DNA from: Methanothermococcus thermolithotrophicus DSM 2095
GTDB taxonomy: Archaea; AGJL01; Methanococci; Methanococcales; Methanococcaceae
Assembly (NCBI RefSeq): GCF_946463545.1
Contig: NZ_OX296583.1
Span: forward strand, 1,432,902 to 1,496,901
Reading direction: 5' to 3'
Length of the DNA: 64,000 nucleotides
Shown: in pieces, positions 4,849 through 63,060 of the stretch
Layout: the number at the start of each line of letters is the position of its first letter
How positions within the stretch are numbered: the first letter of the stretch is position 1
Program-made: the position numbers and the translations under genes
Notes under the pieces: model-generated
What the model was told of the DNA's origin: nothing
Databases searched by the model: none
The model's input: the letters and a program-made list of their open reading frames with translations, nothing else

Positions 4849-5844
4849 TTAAACCAGCTCTCCATTAAACGCCTTATTTAATATGGACTCTTTTAACTCT
4901 CTGAATATATTCAATTCTCTTTCCTGTAATTCTTCCAACCTTTTTATTTTCTCGGTTAAAATGTCTAAATAATTTACTATCTCCAACTGTCTTTCTAGAT
5001 TAGGTTGATTGTTTTTGTATGGGATTGGGATTGATAAATTATCAAATACTTCTTTTGAAATAGATGGAATTTCCGAGTCTATGGCATTTTCATTAGGAAT
5101 TGAAAAATAGTGTTTTATAAAATAATAAATAAACTTATTATAAAGATCGTTATTTATAGACGTTGATATTCTCCCAATATCTGAAATGAGAATATTATCT
5201 AGTTCTTCCATGCTTGTTATTTCATTTAATTTAACTAATTCCCAACCTTCTTTATCTGCTATTTCCCTAAAAATTTTATTTAAAACCGAGCTAAATAAAC
5301 CCCTTGTTTCACCTATTGATTTTTGTTTTAACTCTATTGCGTTATCCAAATCTTTAAAAAGGTACTCTATTTTGTCTATAATTTGTTTTTGTTTTTCAAG
5401 CGGGGGTAATAAAAATTCGAATGATTTTATTTCATCCCATGAGCTCTGTGGGTTCATTTCTTGCATGGTTTTGTTAACAAAATTTAAGAAACTTTCAGAG
5501 CTCATGGCAATTAAAAGATATTTTGAATAAATTTTAGCAATATCTGGAGTTAATACAAGTATATCTGTCGAACAGGCTCCATCTACATCTGACAAGACGG
5601 CCTTATTCAAATATTGGCTTGGTTTTCCATATAAAATATCTCCAGCATAAAATTTGTTTTTGCCATCCTCAACTTCCTTTGGGCTACCATAATTGGATAA
5701 ATGCCATTCATTGCTTTTAATGTGTTCCAAACCAACATAAACATTTTCATCCTTCATCTCTAAGGGGCTAATCTGCTCTTCTCGAGTATTGCATACTTCC
5801 CCCAATTTAACCCATTCCCAACCTTCTGGTATATTATATTCCAT
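4849..5844 (-). CDS. hsdS: Type I restriction-modification specificity subunit HsdS (two short target-recognition domains)
   Basis: Two EGWEW/EGWELVKL target-recognition-domain starts are present. A central conserved LPPLEKQ..I repeat and the C-terminal ...LEELQERE....LNKAFNGEL motif are present. Probable ATG is at 5844, preceded by GGTGA. No hsdM or hsdR is nearby. Confidence 0.75.
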   Translation of the reverse strand: MEYNIPEGWEWVKLGEVCNTREEQISPLEMKDENVYVGLEHIKSNEWHLSNYGSPKEVEDGKNKFYAGDILYGKPSQYLNKAVLSDVDGACSTDILVLTPDIAKIYSKYLLIAMSSESFLNFVNKTMQEMNPQSSWDEIKSFEFLLPPLEKQKQIIDKIEYLFKDLDNAIELKQKSIGETRGLFSSVLNKIFREIADKEGWELVKLNEITSMEELDNILISDIGRISTSINNDLYNKFIYYFIKHYFSIPNENAIDSEIPSISKEVFDNLSIPIPYKNNQPNLERQLEIVNYLDILTEKIKRLEELQERELNIFRELKESILNKAFNGELV

Positions 5845-6066
5845 AAATTCACCCACAACGATTTTAATTATAATAAATGTTTTAACTTCATTCTTTTAAA
5901 ACTTCATATGTTCTTCATATTTAATTCCTTTTATACACTTGTATCGAAATGATTAACAAGTAAATTCAAACTTATTTTAATATAAATCACTCTTCTACAT
6001 CCTTTCCTTAAATAATCCACTGTCATAGGTGTATTTTTTTCGCTTCGATTACTCCGACTACTGTTT

Positions 6067-6534
6067 TTATTCGAGCTCCTTTAAAATTTTCTCAATGATG
6101 GGTTTTAATTTTGTGAGCCCCTTTCTAATCAGTTTCCAAATTAAATTATAATCAGCATCCCAATATTGGTAAAGTAGGCTGTTTTCTATTTCTTCTAATT
6201 TTTTAAAAGGTACATTTTTATATTTTTTCTTAAATTCTTCATCAATATATTTTGACGCTTCCCCTATAATTATCAAACATTGAGATACTGCATCTTTTGT
6301 TAGTTTGTCATTTAAAAATTCTTTGTAATTCATATTTTTTGTAAATTCGATGGTGTAATTAATATTTTCTAAAATATCAGTTAAAAATACTTTATTATTT
6401 TTTTCAAATTTGTATATTAATTCGTCATCAGTTGATTTTATTAATTCTGATTTAATATTGTTTTTAAGTATTAAATTTATATTTTCATTAAATAAGTTCT
6501 CCAAATAATTTTCTAAACTTACATAATTATCCAA
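6067..6534 (-). CDS. HEPN-like protein; upstream in-frame sequence (6535-6660) encodes a truncated minimal-nucleotidyltransferase motif
   Basis: The frame stays open upstream to 6660 and encodes ...TPDIDILVEFEDE..., the nucleotidyltransferase catalytic motif. There is no start codon or GS motif. This looks like a 5'-truncated MNT-HEPN fusion next to a hairpin repeat. Confidence 0.35.
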   Translation of the reverse strand: MDNYVSLENYLENLFNENINLILKNNIKSELIKSTDDELIYKFEKNNKVFLTDILENINYTIEFTKNMNYKEFLNDKLTKDAVSQCLIIIGEASKYIDEEFKKKYKNVPFKKLEEIENSLLYQYWDADYNLIWKLIRKGLTKLKPIIEKILKELE

Positions 6535-6686
6535 ATTTTCATACTCATCTTCAAATTCAACTAAAATATCAATATCGGGTGTTTCTTGCTCCCATTTTGG
6601 TAAATCCTTTAATATTCCGATAGTTTTAACTTTGTATTTTTCTTTAGTTCTTTTTGTACTCTAAAAGTATGTTTTTTATTTCGTTT

Positions 6687-6740
6687 AAGGTTTTCGTAGC
6701 GAAGCGGAGAGCTACAAAAACCGAAGGTTTTTGTTTAATC
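6687..6740. repeat. Hairpin repeat element upstream of the truncated MNT-HEPN gene
   Basis: GTAGCgaagcggagaGCTAC, then ACAAAAACCgaaGGTTTTTGTTTAATC. Confidence 0.65.
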
Positions 6741-6816
6741 ATGATATCCCCTCGGAGCTCCCAAAAGTATATATTATGTTAATATCGTATTAATATTATA
6801 TAAATAAAAGGTGGTG

Positions 6817-7065
6817 TTAATGGTTAAAGCAATAGTCAATATTTCAGATGAAAACAATCAAGTAATTAACATTATAAAAGCAAAATACAACCTTAAAGAC
6901 AAAAGCGAAGCGATAAATAAGATAATAGAAGAATACGCAGAAATATTATTAGAACCAGAGTTAAAACCTGATTATGTTGAGAAAATAAAAAGAATTATGG
7001 AAAATGAAACACCCATACATATCGGCTCTGTTGAAGAACTAAATAAAAGATATTTGGGTGAATAG
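6817..7065 (+). CDS. RelB-like antitoxin (small DNA-binding protein)
   Basis: 82 aa, GGTGG ribosome-binding site. Its stop TAG overlaps the ATG of the downstream relE-like gene (TAGATG). Confidence 0.5.
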   Translation, partial: LMVKAIVNISDENNQVINIIKAKYNLKDKSEAINKIIEEYAEILLEPELKPDYVEKIKRIMENETPIHIGSVEELNKRYLGE

Positions 7066-7365
7066 ATGTATGATATTGAAATCATGCCCTCGTTGGATAG
7101 GATACTTACAAAATTATCTAAAAAAGATGGGAAAAAAGTAGAAATCATCTTAAAAAAGATTAGTGAAATAAACAAAAATCCACACCACTATAAAAATTTA
7201 AGAACACCAATGGAAGATTTTAAAAGAGTTCATATTGATAAAAGTTTTGTTTTAATATTTACTGTGGATGATAATGAAAAGAGAGTTATATTTGTAGATG
7301 TTGCTCACCATGATGAGATATATAAAAATAAAAGAATATCAAAAATAAAGAAAATATTGCAATAA
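7066..7365 (+). CDS. relE: RelE/ParE-family toxin
   Basis: 99 aa, basic, with a C-terminal ...KRVIFVDVAHHDEIY pattern typical of archaeal RelE. It is translationally coupled to the antitoxin. Confidence 0.6.
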   Translation: MYDIEIMPSLDRILTKLSKKDGKKVEIILKKISEINKNPHHYKNLRTPMEDFKRVHIDKSFVLIFTVDDNEKRVIFVDVAHHDEIYKNKRISKIKKILQ

Positions 7366-7566
7366 CCATATTTTTAAACTGTATTGAACCATACAGCACG
7401 TTTTATACTCCTGGAAATAACAAAGGCATATATTTAAATACTCTAAGCGCGCAGTATAAAAACCAAAATAACAAATACAACAAGGAACCACACAATAACA
7501 TAACAATAATAATTCTAAAAATAGCAAACATCAAATAATACTCTTTAAATAGTGCAGTGCTAAAAA

Positions 7567-8313
7567 CTAAACTTGCCACTTTTTTTCAAGCAAGTTTTCC
7601 ACTGACTCTTTATGAATTCCCACTGAATATCTTTCCCCATCTAACTCTATTACTGCAAAACTTCTGGATTTTTCAGACGAATCAACCCTAATATATAAAC
7701 CTCCATAATCCATCCTTGTTAAAGTATATTCTGTAAAATGCAAATGCCCATTAAGCACAATTTTTGGTTTTATCAAATTAATGGTATCCATAATCAATTT
7801 TGAACCTTTAGATATTCTGAATTTAAAACATTCCAATTCATTAGAAGAATACACAGGCAATTCAGGAGTTTCATGACAGAGAAAAAAGTCTATTGAGTAA
7901 AGAGACGTTTGAGTTTCCTCAAGAAAATTCCTTGCCTTTATTATAAATGAATCACCCCTTTGCCTTGGCACACCCTTCTTCATTAATCTCTTTTCACTAT
8001 AAATGCCATTAACTCCACATATTTTCAAACCGCAAACTTCAACCACTTCAAAATCCTGCAAAAGCGCCGACCTACCAAGACTGGGGGCAATAATCTGAGT
8101 GAGCTCTTGCATATTCTCATGATTTCCAAAAATTGTAAGGAGGGGTATTTTCTCTAGAATTGGTTGAATAGAATTTCTTGTTAATCCTTCGTCCCAATCT
8201 CCTGCTGATAGGAGTAAATCTGGCCGGGTTTCTATTATGATTTGATTTAACCATTCAAATTGAGCATTTTCTATCATAGTAGTATGCAAATCACTAATAA
8301 ATAGAATTCTCAT
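7567..8313 (-). CDS. Calcineurin-like metallophosphoesterase
   Basis: DLH, GDW.E, GNHE and GHLH metal-ligand motifs are present. Confidence 0.7.
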   Translation of the reverse strand: MRILFISDLHTTMIENAQFEWLNQIIIETRPDLLLSAGDWDEGLTRNSIQPILEKIPLLTIFGNHENMQELTQIIAPSLGRSALLQDFEVVEVCGLKICGVNGIYSEKRLMKKGVPRQRGDSFIIKARNFLEETQTSLYSIDFFLCHETPELPVYSSNELECFKFRISKGSKLIMDTINLIKPKIVLNGHLHFTEYTLTRMDYGGLYIRVDSSEKSRSFAVIELDGERYSVGIHKESVENLLEKKWQV

Positions 8314-8486
8314 ATTATCCCATAATTGTTATAACTGTTATTTTTCTGCATTTGAAGAAACTTACTAGGTTAAATGTTTGCGTATTTTTGAATATAATCG
8401 AACTTTATAATCGAGTGAGATCTACAGTTTTATTACTTGGCAAATATATTAACACATTAAATTTCAATTAAAGAGAGGACTATACT

Positions 8487-8514
8487 ATTTAAATAGTCTT
8501 AAACTGCGCCGTAC
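8487..8514. repeat. 28-bp direct repeat, left copy (ATTTAAATAGTCTTAAACTGCGCCGTAC)
   Basis: 25 of 28 positions match the copy at 19059-19086. Contains a palindromic ACTATTTAAATAGT core. Confidence 0.6.
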
Positions 8515-9949
8515 TCCAAAAAAAGGACATAAATCAACTTAAAAGTATAAAAATACCACTATAAATTACAAAGGCATAATCCCATCCAATTCAATACAAA
8601 ATAATGACCGATTTCTTTTTTTAATTTATTATCCACCGTAATCATTACTACACTGTTATCCATCATCCACAAACTTACTATTCCCTATTACCGGACCTGG
8701 AGGTTATTGCCCAACACCACCAAAAGGAGCTCTCTCACTAGCATATACTTATTAAGAGAACTAGGCACACTTGATCCAAATAGTCTGTTTTATTTAAAAT
8801 ATATTATTTTTTCTTTTAGAAGTGAATAAAAGTATTTAAAAAACATGCCTCCGTAATATTACAAAGGCATATATTCAATAAGGTTAACATTGGCATATAT
8901 TGTGTGAATGGAAAAGTAGAGAATAATATAAGTTTTTCTGATTTTTTCTAATAATTGGCGTTAAATGCGCCTCTGGTTAAGTTTCTTATGTTGGATGTTA
9001 TGTTTAAAAAACTTAAGATATGAGTAAAAATAAAATACAAGGAAGTAAATATTTACAACTTAAGTCTATATCTATCCTTTAATAGGTATTGAAAATGTTA
9101 GGTACCTTCGGATGTATGAACATGCGCCATATTTATTATATATTTCATCAAGTTTTTCATTGATTTGTTCATTTTTTCGCTTAGCAATTCATGGTTGGTG
9201 CTAACATCCTCTGCAAGAGATTTCTTTTAAGTTTTTTCATTAATTTTACATCTTTAAATTTATTTACCAAAAATTCAGACCAATCATGCTCCTTGCAAGC
9301 ATATATAAACAACTCATCCCTAACGAAGAACCTATACCTGTTTTAAAATCTTATCTTCAAATTAGTGGATAAAAAATAGAATACAGCGCTAAAAATCTAT
9401 GATACTACTGAGTCCTATTAAAATAGTTAGATAATGCCTTATAGATTAAGTTAGTCATCAAAACGAAGGGCCAAGGCTGGTTTTTACTAAAATTAAGATT
9501 ATTAACATATTTCAGATGTATGAACATGCGCCACATCATATGGTGTTAAATACACTTAAATTTCTTATAAATTGCGCTATTTAGTATTTATTGGACAATT
9601 GATTATATTGTGCCTTTGTAATATATTACAAGGGCATATACTAGTTCTGGATACTGTATAGAAAAAACTATTCGATGCTAATGATAGGTTAAAAATGAAG
9701 ATACGAAAACTTATAAAACTTTAAGCAATTTAAACTTATATACTGATGAAGAAGAGAAAAATGAAAAATTATTTAAAAGATTAAAAAAAGAAAATTAATA
9801 ATTTCCTACTTTGCTTTTTATGGGGGATATAATGGGGAATATTATGGTTTTAGAACTAATGAATTAATTGAACAAGAAGAAATAGACGAAATACATGTTT
9901 CTGGATTGTTATGGAAATTTAGATTACATATATAAAAATTTGGCAATTG

Positions 9950-10250
9950 TTGGATATGGGGGCGATTGTTTATACTTTTGGTATTAATACTGGTAAAAAG
10001 GTTTGGGAGTTTGAAACAAAAAGGGGTAATCTCATTTTGTAAGTATGGCAATATTGTGATGGTTGGATGTTATGATGATGCATTTATGCCTTAAATTCAA
10101 ATAATGGCTCTAAACTTGGGAGTTTGAGGCGAGTAGTAGTATAGAGGGTCAATGAAAAAAGATATTTTAGTGATGAAATGTAATATCGGGCATATTTATG
10201 CTTTTGATTTTAATATAATATCGGATAATCTCTTAAAAAGTAAATAAATG
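9950..10250 (+). pseudogene. Degraded PQQ-like beta-propeller gene remnant
   Basis: Broken frames encode ...AIVYTFGINTGKKVWEFETKRGN... and ...DDAF.ALNSNNGSKL.EFE....KKDILVMKCNIGHIYAFDFN. These are classic propeller blades interrupted by stops and frameshifts. Confidence 0.45.
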
Positions 10251-10336
10251 TTTTAACCGTATCGCCCTTAACGGGCTTCGTGCCTTATTGTGAGGGAACT
10301 ATAGTTGTATATATAGGATTACAATAGGGGGACATT

Positions 10337-13300
10337 ATGAATACTGATTTATCATTTTTAACTAATGAAAAGGGCAATAAACTTGTAGATAGATTTTCAA
10401 TACTATTGAAAGATACTAAATTTTTTGACTGTCTGGTTGGTTATTTTTATGCTAGTGGATTTTATGCATTATATAAATCATTAGAAAATACTGAAAAAAT
10501 TAGAATACTCGTAGGTATCAATACGGATAAAAAAACTTTTGATTTAATTCAGGAGGCTGCGGGGGACATTAAAAAATATAGACTATCATTCAAAGAAGTT
10601 AAAGAAAATTTTTCAGAAAGCATAATTTCAGAAATGGAAACTTCTGAAGACTCATGCACTGTTGAAGAAGGAATTAAAAAATTCATTGAATGGCTTAAAT
10701 CTGGAAAACTTGAAATAAGGGTATATCCCAAAGCTAAAATCCATGCAAAACTTTACATAATGAGTTTTAAAGAAGGGGATAGGGATAAAGGCAGAGTCAT
10801 TACAGGTTCAAGCAACTTCACGCGCTCTGGATTGGTGGATAATCTTGAATTCAATGTGGAATTAAAAACCAGGTCTGACTATGAATTTGCATTAAATAAA
10901 TTTAATGAATTATGGGAGGATTCGGTAGATGTTTCGGAAGAGTACGTTAGAACAGTTAATAAAAAAACATGGTTAAATGAGGACATCACGCCGTATGAAT
11001 TATATTTAAAATTCCTTTACGAATACATGAAGGAAAAAATAAATTTAGATTTAACTGATGAATTTGAAAGTAAATTCCGACCTGATAATTTTATGGATTT
11101 AAAATATCAAAGGGATGCAGTCCAAGATGCAAAACTTAAACTTGAAGAATATGGAGGAGTTTTTATTTCCGATGTTGTTGGTTTGGGAAAAACATACATA
11201 GCCACAATGTTGGTTCAGCAACTTGGTGGTGAAACTCTTGTAATTGCTCCGCCAGTATTGATTGATGAAAGAAATCCAGGCTCTTGGAAAAATGCCTTTT
11301 ATGATTTTGGAGTTAGGGGAAGATTTGTATCAAGGGGCAATTTAGATATGGCATTTGAATATGGTATTGAAAACTTTAAAAATATTATAATTGATGAATC
11401 TCATTATTTTAGAAATGAATCTACGGAGATGTATGAAAAATTATTTAGGATATGCAGTGGAAAACGGGTAATATTGGTTTCTGCAACTCCGTTAAATAAT
11501 AAGCCCATGGATATTCTTGCCCAGATAAAATTGTTTCAAAATGTTCATAATTCCACACTCCCAAATCCAAAGGTAAGGGACCTTGAAAAATTCTTTAAAA
11601 AATTAGATGCAAGACTTAAAGGAGTAGATAGGCGAAAGGACAAAGAAAAATATATGAAAATTGTTCAGGAGAATGCAAAAGAAATTCGTGAAAATGTTTT
11701 ACAGTATTTAATGGTAAGAAGGACTAGAAAAAGTATTGAGAAGTATTATTCAAAAGATTTGGAAAAACAGGGTTTGAAATTTCCAGAAGTTCAGGACCCA
11801 AAGCCAGTTTATTATGAATTTGATGAAAAGTTAGATTCAATTTTTGAAGAAACCCTTAATTTAATTACAAAAGAGTTAAAATATGCAAGATATACTCCAA
11901 TGCTATATTATAAAGGGAGAGAATTTGATAACCGAATTATTCAGCCACAAAAGAATATGGCAGGATTTATGAAAACCATGCTTTTAAAACGGCTGGAGAG
12001 TAGTTTTCACGCATTCAAGATGTCAATTAATAGGTTTATAGGTTATTACGAAAAATTTATAGCTGGATGTGAGGATGGTAATGTTTATATCAGTAAAAAA
12101 CATCTATCCAAAGTTTTTGAGTTTCAGGAAAACGATGATGAGGAGTCCATTGAAAAGTTAATAAGTGAGGGAAAGGTGGAAATCTACCCTATTAAAGATT
12201 TTGAGCCTAAACTTATTGATGACTTAAAATATGATTTAGAGATTCTAAAACATATAAAAGAAATGTGGAGCTCCGTTGATGAAGACCCGAAACTTGATAA
12301 ATTAATCGATATTTTAGAAACAGATGATGTGTTAAAGGATAATAAGGTAATAATATTTACAGAATCAGAAGAAACTGCAAAATATCTTGAAAGGGAATTA
12401 AATCCCTTGTTTAATAATAAAGTTTTGGCATTTTCTGGAACTTCTGACAATAGTTTAAGAAAAATTATAACTGAAAATTTTGATGGAAAATCAAAGGTTA
12501 AAAAGGATGAATATATGATTTTAATTTCAACAGAAGTTCTTTCAGAAGGTGTAAATTTACATAGGTCAAATGTGGTAATTAACTACGACATTCCTTGGAA
12601 TCCTTCAAGAATGATGCAGAGAGTGGGGCGTATAAACAGAGTAGATTCCAAATTTGATAAAATATATATTTATAACTTCTTTCCAGCAACAAAAATAAAT
12701 GAAAATATGGGTTTGAAGGAAGCCGCAGAGGCTAAAATTAGAAGTTTCATTGAAATGCTTGGAACTGATTCTAGGTTATTAACCGATGAAGATATAAAAT
12801 CCTTTGACTTATTTTCACGCCTTAACTCAAAAGAAACAGTCATTGGGGAAGATGAGGACGACCCTGAGTTGGCATATTTAGCATATTTGAGAGATATTCG
12901 AGACAATGATAAGGAATTATTTGATAAAATAAAAAACCTTCCTAAAAAAGCAAGGACTGCAAAAAAACATAATGAGAATTATAATTCACTGATTACATTC
13001 TTTAAAAAGGGAAAAATGAGAAAGATATATCAAACTACACCAGAGGGAGTTAAAGAACTTGATTTTTATAAGGCCGCAGAGATTCTAAAAGCAGATATTG
13101 ATACAAAAAAGATGAAAATTGGAATGGACTATTATGCTCATCTTGATATGCTTAAGAAAGAATTTAATAAAGTATTCGAAGAGGAACATGTTATTTCAAA
13201 AATTAAAATAAGAAGAAGTAGGAATGAGTCTAAATTAATTAAGTTAATAAAAGCCATAAAACAGAATGAAAGAAGGCTCACGGATGATGATGTAGAGTAT

Positions 13301-13540
13301 CTCGACAGGGTGTTGAAACTTATTGAAATAGGCGGTGTATCTAAAAATACCATAAAAACTATACTGGATAATATTAAAAAAATAAATAATAATAGTGGCA
13401 TGCTTGATTTATTCAAAATGTATAACGAGATAAAAAAAGGAATACCTTATGATTTATTCCAAAAATTAGAATTTAACTCATCGGCAAATATTGAGGGGCC
13501 TAAGGAAATAATTCTTTCTGAATATTTAGTGGGGAAGTAA
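10337..13540 (+). CDS. PLD-family nuclease fused to SNF2-family helicase (defense-type helicase-nuclease)
   Basis: N-terminal HxK...GSxN phospholipase-D motif (KIHAKLYIM...GSSNFT). SNF2 motifs GLGKT, DESH and SAT are present. The C-terminal helicase domain has the ...QRVGRINR motif. Confidence 0.85.
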   Translation: MNTDLSFLTNEKGNKLVDRFSILLKDTKFFDCLVGYFYASGFYALYKSLENTEKIRILVGINTDKKTFDLIQEAAGDIKKYRLSFKEVKENFSESIISEMETSEDSCTVEEGIKKFIEWLKSGKLEIRVYPKAKIHAKLYIMSFKEGDRDKGRVITGSSNFTRSGLVDNLEFNVELKTRSDYEFALNKFNELWEDSVDVSEEYVRTVNKKTWLNEDITPYELYLKFLYEYMKEKINLDLTDEFESKFRPDNFMDLKYQRDAVQDAKLKLEEYGGVFISDVVGLGKTYIATMLVQQLGGETLVIAPPVLIDERNPGSWKNAFYDFGVRGRFVSRGNLDMAFEYGIENFKNIIIDESHYFRNESTEMYEKLFRICSGKRVILVSATPLNNKPMDILAQIKLFQNVHNSTLPNPKVRDLEKFFKKLDARLKGVDRRKDKEKYMKIVQENAKEIRENVLQYLMVRRTRKSIEKYYSKDLEKQGLKFPEVQDPKPVYYEFDEKLDSIFEETLNLITKELKYARYTPMLYYKGREFDNRIIQPQKNMAGFMKTMLLKRLESSFHAFKMSINRFIGYYEKFIAGCEDGNVYISKKHLSKVFEFQENDDEESIEKLISEGKVEIYPIKDFEPKLIDDLKYDLEILKHIKEMWSSVDEDPKLDKLIDILETDDVLKDNKVIIFTESEETAKYLERELNPLFNNKVLAFSGTSDNSLRKIITENFDGKSKVKKDEYMILISTEVLSEGVNLHRSNVVINYDIPWNPSRMMQRVGRINRVDSKFDKIYIYNFFPATKINENMGLKEAAEAKIRSFIEMLGTDSRLLTDEDIKSFDLFSRLNSKETVIGEDEDDPELAYLAYLRDIRDNDKELFDKIKNLPKKARTAKKHNENYNSLITFFKKGKMRKIYQTTPEGVKELDFYKAAEILKADIDTKKMKIGMDYYAHLDMLKKEFNKVFEEEHVISKIKIRRSRNESKLIKLIKAIKQNERRLTDDDVEYLDRVLKLIEIGGVSKNTIKTILDNIKKINNNSGMLDLFKMYNEIKKGIPYDLFQKLEFNSSANIEGPKEIILSEYLVGK

Positions 13541-13541
13541 A

Positions 13542-15143
13542 ATGGATAGAAAAAATGCCGTAAAACTTGTTGAAAAAACTTTTGGGGGAGAGTTTAATGA
13601 GGATAGGTATTTAGAATTCGTTATCGAGATGTTTGGAGACAGTAGTTTTTTAAAATCTCCTAAGGAATATTCGATGTGGGAAGAATATGCTGAATATACT
13701 GATTCTCTCAAATATTACGGGACATATACGGACAGTTCCAATAAAACAATAGATGTTCTATCTGTGAGATTAAAAAAAGATAAATATGTTACTAAGTCGA
13801 GGACTGTGCAAAGGAACATTATTTTAAAGTGGATTGGGGGTACAAACAAAGATGGTGCATTAGTTGCATTTTACAGTGATGAGCTCGACGACTGGCGGTT
13901 TTCATTTGTTAAAATGGAGTATAAAATTACAGAAGATTTTAAAATTGAAAAGGGTTTTACTCCTGCTAAAAGGTGCTCCTTTTTAGTTGGGAAAAATGGG
14001 GCAAACTATACATGCAAAAAAAATTTTTTAAGATTGATAGTAAATGAAAATAACCCTGCTTTGGAAGAAATTGAAAACGCTTTCAATGTTGAAAATATAT
14101 CTGATGAGTTTTTAAGAAAGTATGAAAATTTATTTTCGGGTAATACTCATAACTTAAAAATTGAAGAATCACAAATAATGGACTTAAAACATATAATGTT
14201 AGATTATGGGCGTTTGCCACTTGATAATCATCAAAAAAATATTTTAGATAAACTATTGAAAACCACAAGTAAAAACATTAAACGTTTCTTAATTAAGTAC
14301 AAAAACAACTGTAATTATATACCCATCTCTGATTTTAAATTGAGAATGTTATTGTCGGATGAAGAATTAATTTTGTGTATCTTTAAAAATATGAAGTATG
14401 TGGGGAAAAATATAATATATTTGGATAAAACAGAATCAGAAATTGAAAAGGAACGCATTGAAAAAAACCAATTTAATAAATTGTTACTAAAATATAAAGA
14501 CTTATATTGTCCAGATGGTCAAATTGAGATCATATATAAGATTCTTAAGTCTCAGACAGATGAACTAAAAAATATGTTGCTAAATTATGAACATATGTCA
14601 CTTGATAATCATCAAAAGCAAATTTTAGATACAATACTGAAAACTATCGGTAGGAAGATATCATACATGAATATTTGGGTACATGATAAAGGCGGGATTA
14701 CGAATACATACTCTTACAAAAAATACAAAATGAAAATGAGTAATAAAGACTTTGCATTATTTATTCTTAAAAATGCAAAGTGGAAAAATGGGACACTATA
14801 TATTAATGAGCATAAGTGTGAAAAACAGTCATCAACTTTAAAGAAAGACAATACAGTCAAAAGAAGGGTAAAAACTAAAATGGTTATAACTTCATCAAAG
14901 AAAGTTGGAAAGTTGGAAAATATAATCATAAATAATAAATTAATGGTTAAAAAAGTTATGAGCTGTAAGTTTAATGATAACAATAATAAACTAATAGTTT
15001 ATGTGGAGCATAATAAAAAACCATTAAAAATAACTATTATTGGAAAAAATAATAAACATATTTGTTATATAAACCAGAAGGGACTTAAAAATAAAGAAAT
15101 AAAAGAAATTAAAAATAAGTATATAACACATTTAACAATTTGA
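13542..15143 (+). CDS. Paralog of the Type IIG enzyme N-terminal nuclease-like domain fused to a K/N-rich C-terminus with an internal ~30-aa duplication
   Basis: The first ~200 aa are near-identical to the N-terminus of the 15225 gene. Some DNA tracts are 100% identical. A candidate PD-(D/E)xK core is D...ELDDW...VKMEYK. The C-terminus carries two LDNHQK.ILD..LKT repeats. Confidence 0.55.
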   Translation: MDRKNAVKLVEKTFGGEFNEDRYLEFVIEMFGDSSFLKSPKEYSMWEEYAEYTDSLKYYGTYTDSSNKTIDVLSVRLKKDKYVTKSRTVQRNIILKWIGGTNKDGALVAFYSDELDDWRFSFVKMEYKITEDFKIEKGFTPAKRCSFLVGKNGANYTCKKNFLRLIVNENNPALEEIENAFNVENISDEFLRKYENLFSGNTHNLKIEESQIMDLKHIMLDYGRLPLDNHQKNILDKLLKTTSKNIKRFLIKYKNNCNYIPISDFKLRMLLSDEELILCIFKNMKYVGKNIIYLDKTESEIEKERIEKNQFNKLLLKYKDLYCPDGQIEIIYKILKSQTDELKNMLLNYEHMSLDNHQKQILDTILKTIGRKISYMNIWVHDKGGITNTYSYKKYKMKMSNKDFALFILKNAKWKNGTLYINEHKCEKQSSTLKKDNTVKRRVKTKMVITSSKKVGKLENIIINNKLMVKKVMSCKFNDNNNKLIVYVEHNKKPLKITIIGKNNKHICYINQKGLKNKEIKEIKNKYITHLTI

Positions 15144-15224
15144 ATATATATTGATTCCAAAAATAGATTTAATCGGTTAGTAGGTATGAGGAACTTAAAT
15201 AAAACTTTTTTGAGTAGTTAATAG

Positions 15225-18200
15225 GTGGAACCAATGGATAGAAAAAATGCCGTAAAACTTGTTGAAAAAACTTTTGGGGGAGAGTTTAATGAGGATAGGT
15301 ATTTAGATTTTGTTGTTGAAATGTTTGGGGATAGTAGTTTTTTAAAAGAATCTCCTAAGGAATACCTGTGGAAAGAATATAGTGAATATGCCGACTATCT
15401 TAAGTATTACGGCACATATAAGGATAGCTCCAATAAAACAATAGATATTTTATCTGTAAAATTAAAGAAAAACAAGTATAGGGATAGATCAAGGACTATG
15501 CAGCGGAACCTTATTGCAAAATGGCTTGAAAATGCAAATAAGGACGCTGCAATAGTTGCATTTTATGGCGATGAGCTCGATGACTGGCGGTTTTCATTTG
15601 TTAAAATGGAGTATAAAATTACAGAAGATTTTAAAATTGAAAAGGGTTTTACTCCTGCTAAAAGGTGCTCCTTTTTAGTTGGAAAGAACGAACCAAACCA
15701 TACCTGTAAAGAAAGATTTCTTGGCATGATAATAGCTGAGAAAAACCCAACTTTAGAGGAAATTGAAGAAGCATTCAGTGTTGAAAATGTATCCGATGAG
15801 TTTTTCAAAGAATATAAGGAGTTATTTTTAGATTTAAAAGATGAGCTCGACAAATTATTGGAATGTGATAAGGACATTAAAAAGGAATTTGAAGAAAAAG
15901 AGATTTCTACAGTGGATTTCGCTAAGAAATTGCTTGGACAGATTGTATTTATATACTTTCTCCAAAAAAGGGCTGGCTTGGTGTTCAAAGAGACCCTGAA
16001 ACTGGGAAGTTTAAAGAATGGGGAGCTGGTCCAAAAGATTTTTTAAAGAGGTTGTATGCGGGAGAATATGCCAAATATGAAAATTTCTTTAAGGAGATGT
16101 TGGAACCATTATTTTATGAAGCGTTATCTACTCAGAGGGATGATTACTATTCTCCTTTTGACTGTAAAATCCCTTTCTTAAATGGGGGACTATTTGAACC
16201 TATTGGGGGCTACAATTGGAAAGAAATTAATTTAAAATTGGACAATGGAATTTTTGAAAAAATTTTTAATGTCTTTGATAAGTATAATTTCACAATAAAA
16301 GAGGATGAACCACTGGATAAAGAGGTTGCTATTGACCCTGAAATGCTTGGGAAGGTTTTTGAAAACCTATTGGAGATTAAAGATAGGAAATCAAAAGGGG
16401 CATTCTATACTCCAAGGGAAATAGTGCATTATATGTGCCAGCAGAGTTTGATTAATTATTTGGAAACGAATACGGACATTCCACGGGAAGATATTGAAAA
16501 ATTCATATATCTCAGTGGATTTTCAACTTCGGAATATCAAAGAAAATTAATTGAACTTGAAAAAATAAATGAACAGATGAAAAAGTTTAACAATGTTTTA
16601 TCAAAAGGATACAGAAAATTATTAAATGAGCGAATAAAGTTAATTAAAAATATAAACTTTCCAAAAAGCATATTGGATAATATAGAAAAAGTTGATGAGC
16701 TATTAAGATGCGTAAAAATAGCAGACCCTGCGGTTGGTTCTGGTGCTTTTCCAGTTGGGATTATGAATGAGATTGTAAAGGCAAGGTCTATATTAACACC
16801 TTTCTTAATAGCAAAGAATAGTGCAAAAATGGAAGACCGGACACTTTATAAATTAAAATGGGAAACTATTCAAAACTGTTTATACGGCGTAGATATTGAT
16901 TCATCTGCTGTGGAAATTACAAAACTTAGGTTTTGGTTATCGTTGGTGGTGGATGAGGATAGCCTAAATAATATAAGGGCATTGCCAAATTTAGACCATA
17001 AAATAATGTGTGGAAATAGTTTGTTGGATGAATTTGAAGGAATAAAACTTTTTGATGATAGTATTCTTGAAATTCCCGAAGAAGAAGATAAAGAACCTGA
17101 GGAATTAAAAAAATTGAAAATTGAAAGGGAAAATTTAGAAAAAACCGCTAAGGAATTGATGTTAAAACAAAAATGGAAGGAACTTGAACCAGTAAGTAAA
17201 AAATTAAATGAATTATATGAATATATTAAAAAATTGGAAAATCAATATAAAAAATCAAAAAATAAAAATTTGAATGATTTACAATCTCAAATTACACTGT
17301 CCGATGCTATAAATATTAGGCGGAAAAAATCACAGGAGAAACTTGCAGAGCTCAAAAAATTGTATAAAGAATATTTCAATGCCCGAGCTAAACGGGATAA
17401 AAATGAGTATAAAGAAAAAATAGAAAAACTTGAATGGGAGCTCATAGAGGAAACACTAATAGAATCAGGAAATGAAGATGCACTGGAAAAATTGAAGCAG
17501 TATAAAAAATCAAGGTCAAAACCATTTTTCTTATGGAAGTTGTACTTTTCAGATGTATTTAGGAGAGAAAACCCTGGCTTTGATATAGTAATAGGTAATC
17601 CACCTTATGTAAGGCAGGAAAAAATAAAAGAATTAAAACCCGCACTTGAAAGAAATTATAAAACATATACTGGAGTTGCTGACCTTTATGTTTATTTCTA
17701 TGAGTTGGGATATAATATTTTAAGAGATGAGGGAGTTTTAGCATATATTACAAGTAATAAATGGATGAGAGCAAATTATGGCGAAAAATTAAGAAAATTC
17801 TTTAAAGAAAATACGAGTATAAAGGAAATTATTGATTTTGGAGGGGAAAAGGTATTTGAAACTGCAACAGTGGATACAAATATTTTGATATTTAAAAAAG
17901 GATATAAAAAAGATAATTTAATGTCTGCGGTGGATTTCACAAAAATTAAAAATTATAATGGATTTATCGATGGGATAAAAAGCAATAGGTTTAAAATACC
18001 GCAATCAGATTTGAAAGAAAATTCCTTTAATTTATCGCCACCAGAGGAATTAAATTTAAAAAAGAAGATTGAAAAAATTGGAATACCTTTAAAGGATTGG
18101 GATATAAAAATAAATTATGGAATTAAAACAGGTTTTAACGATGCTTTTATAATTGATGGAAAAACTAAGGATGAATTAATTAAAAAAGACCCAAAGAACA

Positions 18201-19048
18201 AAGAGATAATAAAACCGATTTTAAGGGGAAGGGATATAAAACGATATGGTTATGAATTTGCGGATTTATGGTTAATTTTTGTTCCTTGGCATTTTCCATT
18301 GCATAATAATTCATCAATTTCTGGGGCATCAGAGGAAGCCGAAAAGGCATTTAAGGAGCAATATCCTGATATATACAACCATTTGCTAAAATATAAGGAA
18401 AAATTAAGTAAACGAAATAAGGCTGAAACTGGAAAAAGATATGAATGGTATGCTTTACAGAGATGTGCCGCTTCGTATTATAAGGAGTTTGAGAAAGAAA
18501 AAATAATTTATCCAGAATTTAGTAGTTCATCTTGCTTTTATTTTGACAATGGGAAATATTACACATCTGATACGGCATGGTTTATTGTTGGAGGTTCTAA
18601 ATATTTGATGGTATTACTTAACTCGAAGGTAATATGGTTTTACTTAGAAAACATGGTATCCCAGCTCGGTTCGAAAGCCCTTAGGATGAAAAAAATATAT
18701 TTAGAAAAACTACCTATCCCAAAAATCCCAGAAGACCAACAAATCCCATTCATAGAAAAAGCGGATAAAATGATTGAATTAAATAAAAAATTCATAAATA
18801 AAAAGAATGAATTTTTAAAATCATTAAACCTAACTAAAATTACTAAGAAATTAGAAACATTTTATAATTTAAGTTATGAAGAATTCCTAAAAGAATTAAA
18901 GAAGCAAAAAATTAATACAGATTCTTTAAACGATTTAGAAAACCGCTTCAACAGCTACAAAAAGGAATTAATGGAAATAAAACAGGAAATAGAAAAAACA
19001 GATAAAGAAATCGATAAAATGGTTTGTATAATCCTAAAAAAACTATAA
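15225..19048 (+). CDS. Type IIG restriction-modification enzyme (N-terminal nuclease domain plus gamma-class N6-adenine methyltransferase plus target-recognition domain), interrupted by a frameshift at a T6 run (16039-16044)
   Basis: The ORFs 15225-16046 and 16052-19048 join into one frame if T6 is read as T7. Methyltransferase motif X (GAFYTPREIV), motif I (ADPAVGSGAFP) and motif IV (GNPPYV) are present. Confidence 0.8.
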
Positions 19049-19058
19049 CATTTAAATA

Positions 19059-19086
19059 GTCTTAAATTACACCGTACAATATCTTA
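19059..19086. repeat. 28-bp direct repeat, right copy (ATTTAAATAGTCTTAAATTACACCGTAC)
   Basis: Matches the copy at 8487-8514. It lies immediately 3' of the Type IIG gene and abuts the stop of an hsdS fragment. Confidence 0.6.
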
Positions 19087-19094
19087 TTGTTTTT

Positions 19095-19222
19095 CCTGTA
19101 ATTCTTCTAATCTTTTTATTTTGTTGTGTAGGTTTTCTAAATATTCTGCGATTTCTTTCTGTCTTTGCAGGTCTGGTTTTTGTCTTTGTATGGAGGGATT
19201 AAAAGGTTTTTTAGCTTTTTGT
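19095..19222 (-). pseudogene. hsdS 3'-end fragment (C-terminal conserved region only)
   Basis: The minus strand encodes ...PFNPSIQRQKPDLQRQKEIAEYLENLHNKIKRLEELQEKQ*. The DNA is clearly homologous to the 3' end of hsdS at 4861-4990 (shared TTCCTGTAATTCTTC.AA.CTTTTTATTTT). Confidence 0.55.
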
Positions 19223-19347
19223 TATATTGCACATTATGTTATTTAGCCCCATTAGTAAATGACACGATTAAAAACGATAAATTTTAAAAAATTGAAACAA
19301 TTCTAGGATTTGTTGAGTAATCATAAAAAATAGATAAATTAATTATA

Positions 19348-20280
19348 TTATTCAAATTCAATAGTGGCTGGTGGCTTGTCTGTAACATCCAAAACTACTC
19401 TTGCGACATTTGGAACTTCAGATGTTATTCTCTTACTTATTCTTTTTATAACTTCAAATGGGAGCTCAGGAACATGGGCAGTCATGGCATCTAATGATTT
19501 AACAAATCTTATTACAACGACCCAGTTGTATTCTCTTATATCTCCCTTAACTCCTGTGGCTTTTGTATCGAGAACAGCTGCAAAGTACTGCCATAAATCT
19601 TTATTCAATCCTTCTTTTTCTATTTCTTCTTCAACTATGGCGTTTGCCTCTCTACAGATTTCCAATTTTTCTTCGGTTATTTCTCCCAAAATTCTAACTG
19701 CCAAACCAGGACCTGGGAACGGCTGTCTGTATGCTATTTCATCAGGAAGTCCGAGCTCCTTTGCAAGTATCCTTACTTCATCCTTATAGAGCTCTCTCAA
19801 AGGTTCAACAACATCCAATACCATCCCACCAGGAAGTGCTATGTTGTGGTGGGTTTTGATGTTACCTTCACTTTCTATCCAGTCTGGTGCAATTGTTCCC
19901 TGAACTAAAACTTCTTCACCGTTTTCTTTTGCAACCTCTTCAAACACTTCTATGAATAATTTTCCTATTATCTTTCTTTTTTCTTCAGGGTCAGTTACTC
20001 CTTTCAGTTCCTTTAAAAATAGTTCTTTTGCATCTATTATTTTTAAGTTAAGTCCCATGTCTTCCTTAAATATTTTCCTTATTTCTTCTGCTTCGTTTTT
20101 TCTCATGAGACCGGTATCTACAAATACTGCCAAGAGTCTGTCTCCTATTGCCCTATCAGCCAAAACTGCAGCTACCGAACTATCTACGCCACCACTTAAT
20201 GCAATAATTGCCTTTCTATCTCCAATCTGTTCTTTTATTTCATTTATAGCCTCTTCAATAACCATTTTAGCGTCAAACAT
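19348..20280 (-). CDS. guaA: GMP synthase subunit B (ATP pyrophosphatase domain)
   Basis: PP-loop SGGVDSS is present. The C-terminus is conserved to ...PPATIEFE. The 310-aa length matches the archaeal split GuaA subunit B. Confidence 0.85.
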
Positions 20281-20345
20281 TTAATCACCTTTAAAATGTA
20301 TATTCGTTTTTTATTTGTTATTATTTTTTATCTTTATTATTTTTC

Positions 20346-21986
<1,641 letters not shown>

Positions 21987-25500: not shown

Positions 25501-26261
25501 TTCATAATGTCATTTTTATAACTATCGTTTAGGGGTTTTTGGAGTGAGCGAAGCGAACGGAGAGCAACGAAATCACTCTTCGTGATTTCGTCTAATGAAT
25601 TATTTTCATCAATGTATTCTATTTTGTTTTTATAGAATATTCCTTTTTTTAATTCCACAGGTCTCCAATCATCAATTACAAGTGTTGCATTTAGCCAGTT
25701 TGCAAGTTCCTCTGGATTCCCAACAGTTGCAGACAAACCGATTAATTGGATATTATTTAAATTCTTTAATTTCGTTAAAATGATCTCAAGGGTTCCTCCT
25801 CTTTCATCATCCCCTATTAAATGGATTTCATCTACCACTACAACAGAAACCTTATCTATCCAATCGATCCTATGTCTCATTAAAGAATCAAGTTTTTCAG
25901 CAGTAGTTATGATTAGATCGTAGCTCGATAAATTCTCTTTTTCATCAAAATCTCCAATGGACAAAGCCACTTTTAAACCATATTTTTCATATTTTTCTTT
26001 AAACTCGTCGTATTTTTCATTTGCAAGGGCTTTTAATGGAACTATAAATAGTCCCTTTTTCCCTGTCGGTTGTTTGTTTTCATCCAATAGATGGTTTATT
26101 AGGGCTATCTCTCCAATAAGGGTTTTTCCACTGGCTGTAGGGATGCATATTAAAAAATTCTTTTGTTTATCAAGTAGTCCATGTTCCAATACCTTTTTTT
26201 GCGGCGGCCTAAGTTCCGTTATGCCGTTGTCGTTTAATACACTAAAAACATAATGCTGCAT
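22503..26261 (-). CDS. hel308: Hel308/Hjm Ski2-type DNA helicase containing a 524-aa intein
   Basis: Walker A PTASGKT and DEIH motifs are present. The intein is inserted in motif VI (TPTL|C...HN|SAGLNLPCRR). The extein portion is about 728 aa. Confidence 0.85.
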   Translation of the reverse strand: MQHYVFSVLNDNGITELRPPQKKVLEHGLLDKQKNFLICIPTASGKTLIGEIALINHLLDENKQPTGKKGLFIVPLKALANEKYDEFKEKYEKYGLKVALSIGDFDEKENLSSYDLIITTAEKLDSLMRHRIDWIDKVSVVVVDEIHLIGDDERGGTLEIILTKLKNLNNIQLIGLSATVGNPEELANWLNATLVIDDWRPVELKKGIFYKNKIEYIDENNSLDEITKSDFVALRSLRSLQKPLNDSYKNDIMNLVVDCIDEDGSCLIFCNSKRGAVSEAKKLNLKKYLSHSEKHELQKLKDEVLSIFDPPTETCRALAECIEKGVAFHHAGLTYEQRKIVEEGFRKKLIKVICCTPTLCLNANTEILQESGFKKITELNKNEKVFALCGNKIRPVDCWKVHKTPQHEYNIVVKTANGLKITTTPNHLFLVKKGKETCEKEAKDLKVGDYVATADKIVVEERDIDLSYGDLYFIGYFIGDGYTGVIEKNVFRGSPDITFNPKYPPNFDDSKLHKKYFLKIKEEGNVSHYVYSKRLREVFNELNMLTKDNKNIDVFYILPLEKLSHFIAGLFDSDGYINANRKKIGFSSISENLIKKLQLALLRFGIHSTIRKRKGKVMKLNKTFRFCKSRRNRRFRESANLRFASTANPKDSLRSPTNNKEYKSRDIYELIIGDFVSVKRFYENIPLRHKEKRRKLEEIVKSKEIAKMWCDCGFSIDLTMFKPRTKSQNELNKERVKLLFELLNGKKLVMNYNNYYSKRKNPHFEFIIREKIGGNKKGVYYSLNDKGKILMNLLNKNIKDKENLEEMYDFLVNLEKCPICGKPLYKEMRHSWKKEYYDGDIYWSMIKEIKKIKVNDKYAYDIELPDDGTNDHYVVANGFIVHNSAGLNLPCRRAIVRDLKRFSGRGMAPISKMEIQQCIGRAGRPGLDPYGEGIVYIKNPNDVEKGFEYLTGKVEDIYSKLSNQKVLRTHILGLISTREVENEMDLKNFIKNTFYAHQYGSLQGVLRNVKEVVDFLEDYDFIVAFTPTKLGKRVSELYIDPYSAKIIIDGLKKINKSSELNTNLELYMLYVLSMTTEMRPPLRVRNHEEEDLILEMMDLNIDDYSWENLESFKTAKMFYDWINEVPEEDILKRYGIEPGILKYKVEQAKWMAYSAKEIFNQLNLKNEQIKDCLSELEIRLEYGAKKDIIELLKIKHVGRVRARKLYNAGIKSKDDIPKNQSKVISLLGDKIGKKVLEEFDLKYGQQTLFDFS
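23613..25184 (-). mobile_element. Intein with LAGLIDADG homing-endonuclease domain inside hel308
   Basis: Starts with Cys after TPTL and ends with His-Asn followed by Ser. LAGLIDADG-type blocks LYFIGYFIGDGY and IAGLFDSDGY are present. Confidence 0.8.
24295..24412. repeat. Multi-hairpin repeat element inside the intein coding sequence (in frame)
   Basis: Contains GCGAATCCtttGGATTCGC, GCAAATCgaaGATTTGC, GAAACCttcgGGTTTC and CAAAACCtgaaGGTTTTG. It encodes an Arg-rich peptide FRFCKSRRNRRFRESANLRFASTANPKDSLRSP. Confidence 0.7.
25541..25592. repeat. Hairpin repeat element inside the hel308 extein coding sequence (in frame)
   Basis: Contains GAGCGAAGCGAACGGAGAGC plus the ACGAAATCACtcttcGTGATTTCGT hairpin. 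It encodes DEITKSDFVALRSLRSL between helicase motifs. Confidence 0.65.
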
Positions 26262-63054: not shown

Positions 63055-63060
63055 AATATA

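Follow-up and report, generated by a model that had tools for sequence, protein, structure and literature searches.

The window analysed here, a stretch of 64,000 nucleotides from Methanothermococcus thermolithotrophicus DSM 2095, covers a variable defence locus of Methanothermococcus that extends from guaAB to a flippase gene. At this locus, two direct repeats enclose a segment of 10,563 bp that comprises 1.8 kb of decayed DNA and an operon encoding a PLD-SNF2 helicase and a Type IIG-like restriction-modification (R-M) enzyme. On the left the segment is bordered by a metallophosphoesterase gene (7567..8313, minus strand). This gene had been described as conserved in the first-pass annotation, but it belongs to the rare accessory genes, its nearest homologue being 58% identical, and other strains possess a 556-aa gene in its place. 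The conserved flank on the right is the gene of GMP synthase subunit B (guaAB; 19348..20280, minus strand), which is preceded by the 3' fragment of an hsdS gene (19084..19178, minus strand; the translation ends in LEELQEKQ and the stop codon). This fragment belongs to the flank and not to the island. The stretch 19079-19178 shares 72% identity with the 3' end (4907-5006) of an intact orphan hsdS (4849..5856, minus strand), and the island-free allele and the alleles with other cargo contain the fragment as well. In the sister species, an intact Type I R-M system (hsdM-hsdS-...-hsdR) is located between guaAB and the flippase gene. The earlier proposal that the island replaced such a Type I R-M locus through the repeats is not supported, as the persistence of the hsdS fragment in the island-free allele makes the R-M decay a separate event.

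The left part of the segment (8515..10336) contains no intact genes. Its recognisable remnants resemble ordinary cellular genes: a C-terminal fragment at approximately 9700-9795 is paralogous to the ORF at 36256-36897, and the translated remnants at approximately 9890-10130 are reminiscent of a beta-propeller repeat of the PQQ type. The stretch also contains two repeats of 19 nt as well as TATGCCTTTGTAAT/ATTACAAAGGCATA-type palindromes. The operon begins with the PLD(HKD)-SNF2 helicase (1067 aa; 10337..13540, plus strand), the first gene of a widespread archaeal two-gene module that consists of this helicase and a large Eco57I/TaqI_C methyltransferase. It is followed by a 533-aa ORF (13542..15143, plus strand), which over its first ~200 residues shares 77% identity with the N-terminal domain of the downstream gene product; this ORF is part of a 1692-bp unit that is found only in this strain type and is deleted elsewhere with varying crossover points. 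The next gene encodes the Type IIG-like enzyme and is split by a frameshift in an A6 tract (15966-15971) into an N-terminal part (270-273 aa; 15225..16046, plus strand) and a C-terminal part, which comprises an Eco57I-type N6-adenine methyltransferase and a TaqI_C specificity domain (983-998 aa; 16052..19048, plus strand). The methyltransferase gene is frameshifted in every strain sampled. The DrmD, DrmMI, and PglX models were among the PADLOC matches of the cargo, with 'HKD+Snf2' and REase_MTase_IIG as the best ones. DISARM class 1 systems consist of DrmA (a DUF1998-partnered helicase), DrmB, and DrmC together with DrmD and DrmMI. An assignment of the cargo to this class was rejected, because only DrmD-like and DrmMI-like matches and no DrmA, DrmB, or DrmC were found in 10337-19048. 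Homologous helicase-methyltransferase modules elsewhere have neither the repeat site nor the decayed stretch, and thus the module itself does not carry the site.

The repeats were originally noticed as two 28-mers matching at 25 positions, a count that we can confirm. The left 28-mer was placed correctly at 8487-8514, but the right one is located at 19050-19077, nine bases away from the reported position (19059-19086), and the true repeat is longer. It comprises 36 bp at 8479-8514 (ACTATACTATTTAAATAGTCTTAAACTGCGCCGTAC, plus strand) and 19042-19077 (ACTATAACATTTAAATAGTCTTAAATTACACCGTAC, plus strand), with 31/36 identical bases. The two copies share an identical 17-bp core, ATTTAAATAGTCTTAAA (8487-8503 and 19050-19066), and the five mismatches are located near both ends of the 36-mers (positions 7, 8 and 26, 28, 30). 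A palindromic core had been reported for both copies. This holds for the left one, which contains the perfect 14-bp palindrome ACTATTTAAATAGT, whereas a deviating left arm leaves the right copy with ATTTAAAT only. The stop codon of the methyltransferase gene (19046-19048, plus strand) lies inside the right copy, and the stop codon of the hsdS fragment (19084-19086, minus strand) follows at a distance of 6 nt, in agreement with the first-pass annotation. In 100 dinucleotide shuffles, 0.00 matches like that between the 28-mers were expected. A third copy of the 36-mer does not exist in the 64-kb window at up to 11/36 mismatches, and nhmmer retrieved only non-significant partial matches there.

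A single site between the metallophosphoesterase gene and guaA had been predicted for island-free relatives, and exactly this arrangement was found in a conspecific metagenome contig (L003/L013; hybrid junction located in ERZ27245802). On this contig guaAB adjoins the metallophosphoesterase gene without the 10.6-kb segment, the flanks differ from the window by 0-1 SNP across several kb, and the BLAST alignments of the two junctions overlap by exactly 36 bp. The one 36-mer present is a hybrid that combines the left arm of the left copy with the right arm of the right copy. Consequently, the right arm of the left copy (C26, G28, G30) and the left arm of the right copy (A7, C8) are specific to the segment, and the left and right copies are 33/36 and 34/36 identical to the empty-site target, compared with 31/36 to each other. 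The locus thus displays what is expected of attL/attR-type ends, namely repeats at both ends and a single empty-site copy with the outer-half arms. From this hybrid it follows that the repeats are true recombination end-points and that the crossover must lie in the 17-bp core. The repeats are the end-points of a natural presence/absence polymorphism, and recombination between them within the identical core, leaving one hybrid copy, has produced an allele that exists in a natural conspecific genome. In the island-bearing contigs, which stem from several sources, the left copy and the right copy each have the same sequence throughout, and all methyltransferase-bearing contigs share one chromosomal context with the island always in the same place.

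Whether the empty site reflects loss or absence of the segment can be judged from the flanks. Per kb of right flank, one contig (L015) deviates from the window at 0.0 positions, the empty allele (B) and the minimal allele (D) at 0.3-0.6, other island-bearing strains at 2.0-3.3, and strains with the 556-aa gene at 16-25. The empty allele is thereby nested among the island bearers. These distances favour secondary loss over a pre-insertion state, on the basis of ~10 kb of flank with a handful of SNPs and under the assumption that no recombination took place between strains; one island-bearing strain, L011, looks mosaic. At least two further deletions between direct repeats have occurred at the locus. 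In the minimal guaAB-flippase allele (L017/L018), the 3' end of the orphan hsdS (4907-5006) has recombined with the hsdS fragment (19079-19178), and the resulting hybrid changes from one hsdS 3' end to the other within 16 identical bp. In addition, other strains have lost the 1692-bp paralogue unit by recombination between paralogous N-terminal segments, with at least three different crossover points. A hybrid repeat in the deletion allele and, where the repeats have sufficient length, separate events with differing crossovers are the pattern of deletion between direct repeats, and together with the nested position of the empty allele these events favour precise loss by short-homology recombination.

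We therefore consider it probable, at roughly 60%, that the 36-bp repeats are the end-points of a polymorphism whose empty allele arose by general short-homology recombination, with the two copies dating from an older event. According to this model, the hybrid allele would be a precise deletion of the segment, carried out by the general recombination machinery of the cell without a dedicated recombinase. More tentatively, the two copies might date from an older integration, in which a DNA circle with a similar site (...CTATAAC-core-CTGCGCCGTAC...) would have recombined once with the chromosomal site (...CTATACT-core-TTACACCGTAC...). Such a single crossover between circle and chromosome would yield the observed arm pattern, in which the variant bases of each copy face the segment. 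The two ends share no homology beyond the 36 bp, and neither an attP-bearing circle nor a donor of the segment was found in the searches made. Against loss by short homology speaks that a core of 17 identical bp offers very little length for RadA-type recombination, and a site-specific enzyme acting in trans would yield the same hybrid product.

Such an enzyme is central to a second explanation, possible but in our opinion doubtful, that the segment is or was an integrative element, inserted and excised at the 36-bp site by a tyrosine or serine recombinase that is encoded elsewhere in the genome or has disappeared from the 1.8 kb of decayed DNA. In that case the empty allele would be either attB before integration or a product of enzymatic excision. 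The arms fit the scheme well (attL, B-left/P-right; attR, P-left/B-right; empty site, B-left/B-right), the similarity runs past the identical core as in many att sites, the site includes the palindrome ACTATTTAAATAGT, and an integrase may formerly have been encoded in the decayed stretch beside the left copy. However, Pfam detected no integrase domain in the tested ORFs or in any of the six reading frames of 8515-10336, no ORF and hence no split integrase spans the reconstructed attP, and the remnants in the decayed stretch are of the cellular type described above. The window contains no tRNA that could have served as target; both absences had already been stated in the first-pass annotation. 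The site was observed in no other context, with 0 matches in species-representative genomes and 0 in JGI metagenomes, and none of the 58 viral matches to the 17-mer core extends into the arms. Moreover, the island is always at one place, no circular junction was seen among the methyltransferase contigs, and the other deletions at the same locus were clearly driven by homology. Thus, neither a recombinase in or next to the element, whole or split, nor a shared site or attP circle was encountered. The initial interpretation of the repeats as attL/attR scars is supported as far as the single hybrid empty site is concerned, but not with respect to a site-specific recombinase.

A third explanation, which we regard as improbable, holds that an R-M unit without any mobile-element genes inserted into a single 36-bp target and duplicated it, so that the empty allele would be ancestral (following the concept of Nobusato 2000 and Furuta 2010). 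The operational criteria of Furuta, Abe and Kobayashi (2010; PMC2853133) are homologues of R and M, an insert of <20 kb, a repeat of >30 bp, and a related genome with an empty site to which the repeat can be aligned. All of these have their counterparts here, with a Type IIG-like nuclease N-domain and a methyltransferase, a 36-bp repeat, and an empty site aligning with both copies. The identities of 33/36, 34/36, and 31/36 follow the same pattern as those of the Haemophilus cases (45/46, 45/46, and 44/46), and a stop codon lies within the repeat, a feature shared with many cases of that survey (PMC2853133). A second cassette at the same locus points in the same direction: in the sister species and other strains, the 556-aa orphan gene is enclosed by two 37-bp copies of the hsdS tail (32/37 identical, 17-bp core), a signature like that of the 10.6-kb segment (36 bp, 31/36, 17-bp core). 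On the other hand, the flank distances favour loss over gain, although on few SNPs and assuming no inter-strain recombination. Plain fill-in would give two copies identical to the target, but five differences are found exclusively on the segment-facing sides, while kilobases of flank show 0-1 difference. Furthermore, the insert is not a clean R-M unit, because it includes 1.8 kb of unrelated decayed DNA. The two cassettes would also permit a bolder reading, to which we assign little credence: Methanothermococcus might insert and excise defence cassettes near the hsdS 3' end without an integrase, duplicating ~36 bp, in a way not described before.

Very improbable, and largely refuted, is a Xer/dif-type module moved by the XerA of the host, resembling IMEX or the pdif modules of Acinetobacter plasmids. 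The 28-bp length, the imperfect direct repeats, and the lack of a recombinase in the segment would suit it, and the reverse complement shares 14/28 positions with E. coli dif (counted by hand), which is not significant in AT-rich DNA. Yet dif consists of 11-bp inverted arms around a 6-bp spacer (PMC2958812), and with TTTAAA as spacer the arms match at 6/11 positions at best. The site is also missing from the conspecific alleles C and D and near guaAB in the sister species, which counts against this explanation, since a chromosome-resolution site would be conserved; neither inverted arms nor one conserved site per chromosome was thus observed. Hardly credible, finally, is a reading of the repeats as two copies of a regulatory sequence, a palindromic promoter or operator resembling a TATA box, that is causally unconnected with gain or loss of the segment, as is an origin by chance or by misassembly: TTTAAATA matches the archaeal TATA-box consensus and TTTAAATAGT occurs 6 times in the window versus 1.06 expected, but the hybrid single copy in the empty allele marks recombination end-points, the similarity extends over 36 bp, far beyond a TATA box, and the right copy is located at convergent gene ends with no evident promoter use, while chance is excluded by the shuffles and the lack of another copy in the window, and the 141-base assembly word that we infer from the k141_ name of junction contig L003 could not collapse a 17-bp identity, with a look-up reporting one further similar place. 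A DNA transposon with target-site duplication was rejected as well: terminal inverted repeats are absent (167/300 shuffles scored as high), the search of the tested ORFs and of all six frames of 8515-10336 retrieved no transposase, and the copies differ at 5/36 positions.

In kind the result is unsurprising; prokaryotes commonly carry islands between direct repeats, with an empty site in related genomes. The present locus provides a base-resolved archaeal case of a defence locus gaining or losing a whole R-M module, with both junctions and the empty site from natural strains that are otherwise almost identical. If the preferred reading of short-homology loss is correct, direct repeats with 16-17 identical bases would suffice to reshape this genome. 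Island, empty, alternative-cargo, and minimal alleles are available in a methanogen that can be cultivated, and at this locus it could be measured directly how often the recombination occurs and what it requires genetically.

Among known systems, deletions between short direct repeats resemble the present case in the precise loss with one hybrid repeat left and in the two further events between hsdS 3' ends and paralogous N-terminal segments; the loss is accounted for by this class, but the position of a 36-bp similarity exactly at the two ends of the segment is not. Tyrosine-integrase islands are flanked by attL/attR, with SSV-type and pTN3/pT26-2-type elements as archaeal examples. They share with this locus the imperfect direct repeats, the identical core, the hybrid arms, and the single-copy empty site, but here an integrase (whole or split) and a tRNA target are lacking, use of the site by another element or genome was not observed, and a mobile-element backbone is missing from the cargo. 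IMEX and pdif modules likewise have 28-bp sites and no recombinase of their own, but they are defined by inverted arms in an 11-6-11 arrangement and their sites are conserved, neither of which applies here. With its SNF2-type helicase with PLD nuclease domain and its Eco57I-family adenine methyltransferase the cargo is reminiscent of DISARM class 1 and BREX-type systems, but it is a two-gene module only, without DrmA/DrmB or BrxA/B/C/L, and its methyltransferase gene is frameshifted throughout the sampled strains. The class of R-M units flanked by long direct repeats differs from the present case in that the host here is an archaeon, in which domain no R-M case passed the screen of the 2010 survey (PMC2853133), in the restriction of the copy mismatches to the segment-facing sides, in the decayed unrelated 1.8 kb of the insert, and in a polarity that favours loss. 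Nevertheless, this class of R-M gene complexes, described as 'insertion with long target duplication', is the closest known one, as both share an R-M unit of <20 kb, imperfect direct repeats of >30 bp that span a stop codon, the absence of mobility genes, and a conspecific empty site that aligns with both copies.

The segment of 10,563 bp is bordered by a 36-bp imperfect direct repeat, with the left copy (ACTATACTATTTAAATAGTCTTAAACTGCGCCGTAC) at 8479–8514 and the right copy (ACTATAACATTTAAATAGTCTTAAATTACACCGTAC) at 19042–19077. The copies are identical at 31 of 36 positions, with differences at positions 7–8 and 26, 28 and 30, and share an identical core of 17 bp. The first-pass annotation had reported 28-mers that agree at 25 of 28 positions; this count is correct, and as no such match is expected by chance, a chance origin of the repeat is ruled out. 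The left 28-mer was correctly located (8487–8514), but the right one actually occupies 19050–19077, nine bases to the left of the coordinates assigned to it, and the similarity grows leftwards from the 28-mer to the full 36 bp. A palindromic core had been ascribed to both copies: the left one indeed contains a perfect 14-bp palindrome, but only 8 bp of it are left in the right one. No homology, direct or inverted, extends past the 36 bp. Within the 64-kb window no further copy was found at up to 11 mismatches per 36 bp, and further nhmmer matches were partial and non-significant. The metallophosphoesterase stop codon is closely followed by two weak, incomplete versions of the motif, at 7536–7561 (minus strand) and 7431–7456 (plus strand), with nhmmer E-values (0.54 and 2.3) not significant alone. 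One of them matches at 20 of 26 positions including ACTATTTAAAGAGT, and the second has the sequence TATTTAAATACTCT..GCGCGCAGTA. The chance expectation for a 16-mer with a single mismatch is just 0.02. Both are located inside the 1.16-kb metallophosphoesterase cassette that alternates with a 556-aa gene. The pattern TTTAAATAGTCTTAAANNNNNCCGTAC had no match in metagenome_contigs or in genome_contigs, a set of representative genomes apparently devoid of an island-bearing assembly of this species (two scans of species representatives gave none), and none of the 58 viral matches to the 17-mer core reached into the arms. Read as a continuation of the hsdS tail, the 36-mer shows an in-register identity to intact tails of ~54% (15/28 to 21/39, aligned by hand). 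This likeness is suggestive of a decayed tail but not significant, and the 85–90% identity of the adjoining hsdS fragment is at odds with it.

Searching public assemblies for exact matches to the flanking proteins revealed four alleles of the locus within the species. Allele A, from several sources, contains the island as in the window, with the left and the right copy each identical in every case. Allele B (loci L003 and L013) has guaAB directly followed by the hsdS fragment, then by a lone 36-mer and then by the metallophosphoesterase. In allele C, the 556-aa orphan gene replaces the metallophosphoesterase cassette, and in allele D guaAB is directly followed by a hybrid hsdS 3′ end, and this in turn by the flippase gene. 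The single 36-mer of allele B has the structure ACTATACT-core-TTACACCGTAC: its left arm is that of the left copy and its right arm that of the right copy, with otherwise identical flanks. The single empty site that the first-pass annotation had proposed to look for thus exists, and this left/right hybrid is proof of a recombination event that took place within the core and had the repeats as its end-points. The segment is adjoined on the left by the metallophosphoesterase, a rare accessory gene, and on the right by the hsdS 3′ fragment and guaAB. Toxin–antitoxin-type genes occupy 6067–7365, between an orphan hsdS and the metallophosphoesterase: a HepT-like gene (6067–6534, minus strand) and DUF2683 and ParE-like genes (6811–7365, plus strand). 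The region between guaAB and the flippase gene is therefore a small defence/addiction island with several alternative contents. The nearest homolog of the metallophosphoesterase (58% identity) is encoded on a 46.7-kb contig (ENA ERZ23495891 scaffold_156), nearly all genes of which have no Pfam match. It shows weak PHROG matches to tail and SbcC-like proteins, and may represent a virus of archaea or a mobile element of a different type.

Whether the segment was gained or lost was assessed from the number of differences to the window over ~9–11 kb of the right flank. One island-bearing locus (L015) had 0.0 differences per kb, the B and D alleles had 0.3–0.6, the other island-bearing strains 2.0–3.3, and the C strains 16–25. 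With allele C as the root, the empty allele and the window's strain form a sister pair, outside which the other island bearers fall. Barring recombination between strains, one loss would thus be more parsimonious than two identical gains. We therefore favour loss of the segment through short homology, in which recombination between the repeats would have removed the 10.6 kb. Such recombination is demonstrably active at the locus and sufficient to account for this loss, as seen in the hybrid of allele D and in chimeras at a 1692-bp unit within the segment. In allele D, the hsdS fragment at 19079–19178 is joined to the 3′ end of the orphan hsdS at 4907–5006 inside an identical 16-bp stretch; these regions are direct repeats with 72% identity, and the minimal-locus strains (L017, L018) lack the metallophosphoesterase, ParE/DUF2683, HepT and hsdS. 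The 1692-bp unit (13541–15232, compared with 15233–15666) is restricted to the window's strain type and encodes an ORF of 533 aa; over its first ~200 aa, this ORF shares 77% identity with the N-terminal domain of the adjacent Type IIG-like enzyme. Other strains lack the unit and possess one clean chimera of the two paralogous N-terminal segments. The crossover lies at no fewer than three different points among these strains, a sign that deletion between the segments is recurrent. A 1252-aa helicase at 22503–26261, compared across loci L011–L020, harbours an intein with Hint, Intein_splicing and LAGLIDADG domains and is split into two ORFs in empty- or minimal-locus strains. Between this helicase and pyrG, other strains encode HTH_20, MTH865 and FMN_red, which are missing here; this three-gene indel is not bounded by repeats.

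Loss through short homology does not account for the similarity over 36 bp at both ends. In each copy the variant bases are on the side facing the segment, as expected if one crossover had joined a chromosomal site to a similar site carried by incoming DNA. We take this pattern as the probable trace of an older integration. The predicted junction of an excised circle would read AAAAACTATAAC-ATTTAAATAGTCTTAAA-CTGCGCCGTACTCC. No circular or second-site form of the island was found among 22 contigs carrying the methyltransferase. The earlier proposal of attL/attR scars stands insofar as the repeats are recombination junctions for which a corresponding empty site exists; their origin is unproven, no recombinase was found, and short-homology loss is favoured. 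A site-specific recombinase acting in trans could also have been involved, as it would yield the same products as short-homology recombination. In agreement with the first-pass annotation, the window contains no tRNA according to ARAGORN, and neither the ORFs nor any of the six reading frames of 8515–10336 gave a Pfam integrase domain, which argues against a tRNA or integrase target. A split integrase of the SSV type is rejected, as no ORF spans the reconstructed attP. A dif-type (IMEX or Xer/dif) module is contradicted by the lack of 11-6-11 inverted arms and by the absence of the site from alleles C and D and the sister species, and a transposon by the lack of terminal inverted repeats and of flank homology past 36 bp.

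The repeats had alternatively been suggested to be the sites at which the island replaced a Type I restriction–modification (R-M) locus. This is not supported, as the hsdS fragment is kept in alleles A, B and C, so that the loss of hsdM and hsdR was a separate event. In the sister species, Methanothermococcus sp. Ax23, the order at the locus is guaAB-hsdM-hsdS-556aa-MNT-hsdR-flippase. The 556-aa gene, here an orphan inside the Type I R-M operon, lies between two imperfect 37-bp copies of the hsdS tail, in Ax23 as well as in allele C. These copies agree at 32 of 37 positions and share an identical core of 17 bp, and none of 500 shuffles reached their score. The copies lie at 13950–13986 and 15683–15719 of the Ax23 locus (L021) and are also found in L014; the first is the hsdS 3′ end including the stop codon. 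The 556-aa protein has no Pfam match and no homolog outside the genus. Because this cassette and the 10.6-kb segment show a similar repeat signature, a recurrent process of cassette insertion next to hsdS could be envisaged, but is unlikely.

The window has a G+C content of ~30% and encodes a split GMP synthase. Among other genomes, the closest belong to Methanothermococcus, with GuaAB 92% identical in strain Ax23. Proteins identical to those of the window are labelled 'Methanothermococcus sp.' by their sources and are also encoded in GCA_000376965.1, an assembly of M. thermolithotrophicus DSM 2095. A short CRISPR-like array at 62811–63057 consists of four ~30-nt copies (GTTAAAATCAGACCATTGTGGGATGGAAAT) at a spacing of 67–72 nt, the last of them degenerate. 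The segment itself begins with 1.8 kb of decayed sequence without intact genes (8515–10336), followed by a PLD-SNF2 helicase (10337–13540), the 533-aa ORF and a Type IIG-like enzyme encoded in two pieces, an N-terminal part of 270 aa and an Eco57I/TaqI_C methyltransferase of 983 aa. Elsewhere in archaea, the helicase is followed by one gene of ~1175 aa for this enzyme. The split is due to a frameshift in an A6 tract at 15966–15971, where one added A restores an ORF of 1274 aa, and the tract is present in all 21 sampled sequences of the gene. The frameshifted enzyme may be inactive, work as two chains, or depend on frameshifting. Homology to foreign helicase–methyltransferase modules begins at the helicase start codon, and the decayed stretch and the repeat therefore lie outside the conserved module. 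The decayed stretch carries a fragment of a paralog of the ORF at 36256–36897, and by our own reading of its translation may contain beta-propeller-like remnants. It had no blastn match in plasmid and phage collections and no remnants of the genes found upstream of metallophosphoesterase homologs, and its 44-aa ORF had no homolog among 1.84 billion representative proteins. A non-coding RNA was dismissed, as Rfam gave no match at E ≤ 1 in 7500–20500. Two identical copies of a 19-nt repeat, GATGTATGAACATGCGCCA, lie in the stretch at 9111–9129 and 9515–9533, 404 bp apart; both read ..WRMFIH.. on the minus strand and could mark the starts of two decayed genes. The motif ATTACAAAGGCATA occurs seven times (0.15 expected), at 7415, 8563, 8856, 9609/9623 and 33746/33757. 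Four copies fall within the decayed stretch and one pair within a divergent intergenic region, and three occurrences build palindromes of the form TATGCC(T/A)TTGTAAT..ATTACAAAGGCATA. The motif may constitute an operator or hairpin element.

Among known systems, the best match is the class of R-M complexes described by the Kobayashi group, which are flanked by long direct repeats, have an empty site in a relative and lack mobility genes. The class goes by the name of "insertion with long target duplication", and in a survey of it no archaeal case passed the screen (PMC2853133). The 10.6-kb segment agrees with the screening criteria of that survey. It is a well-documented case of a known form of genome plasticity, and possibly its first clearly resolved archaeal example.
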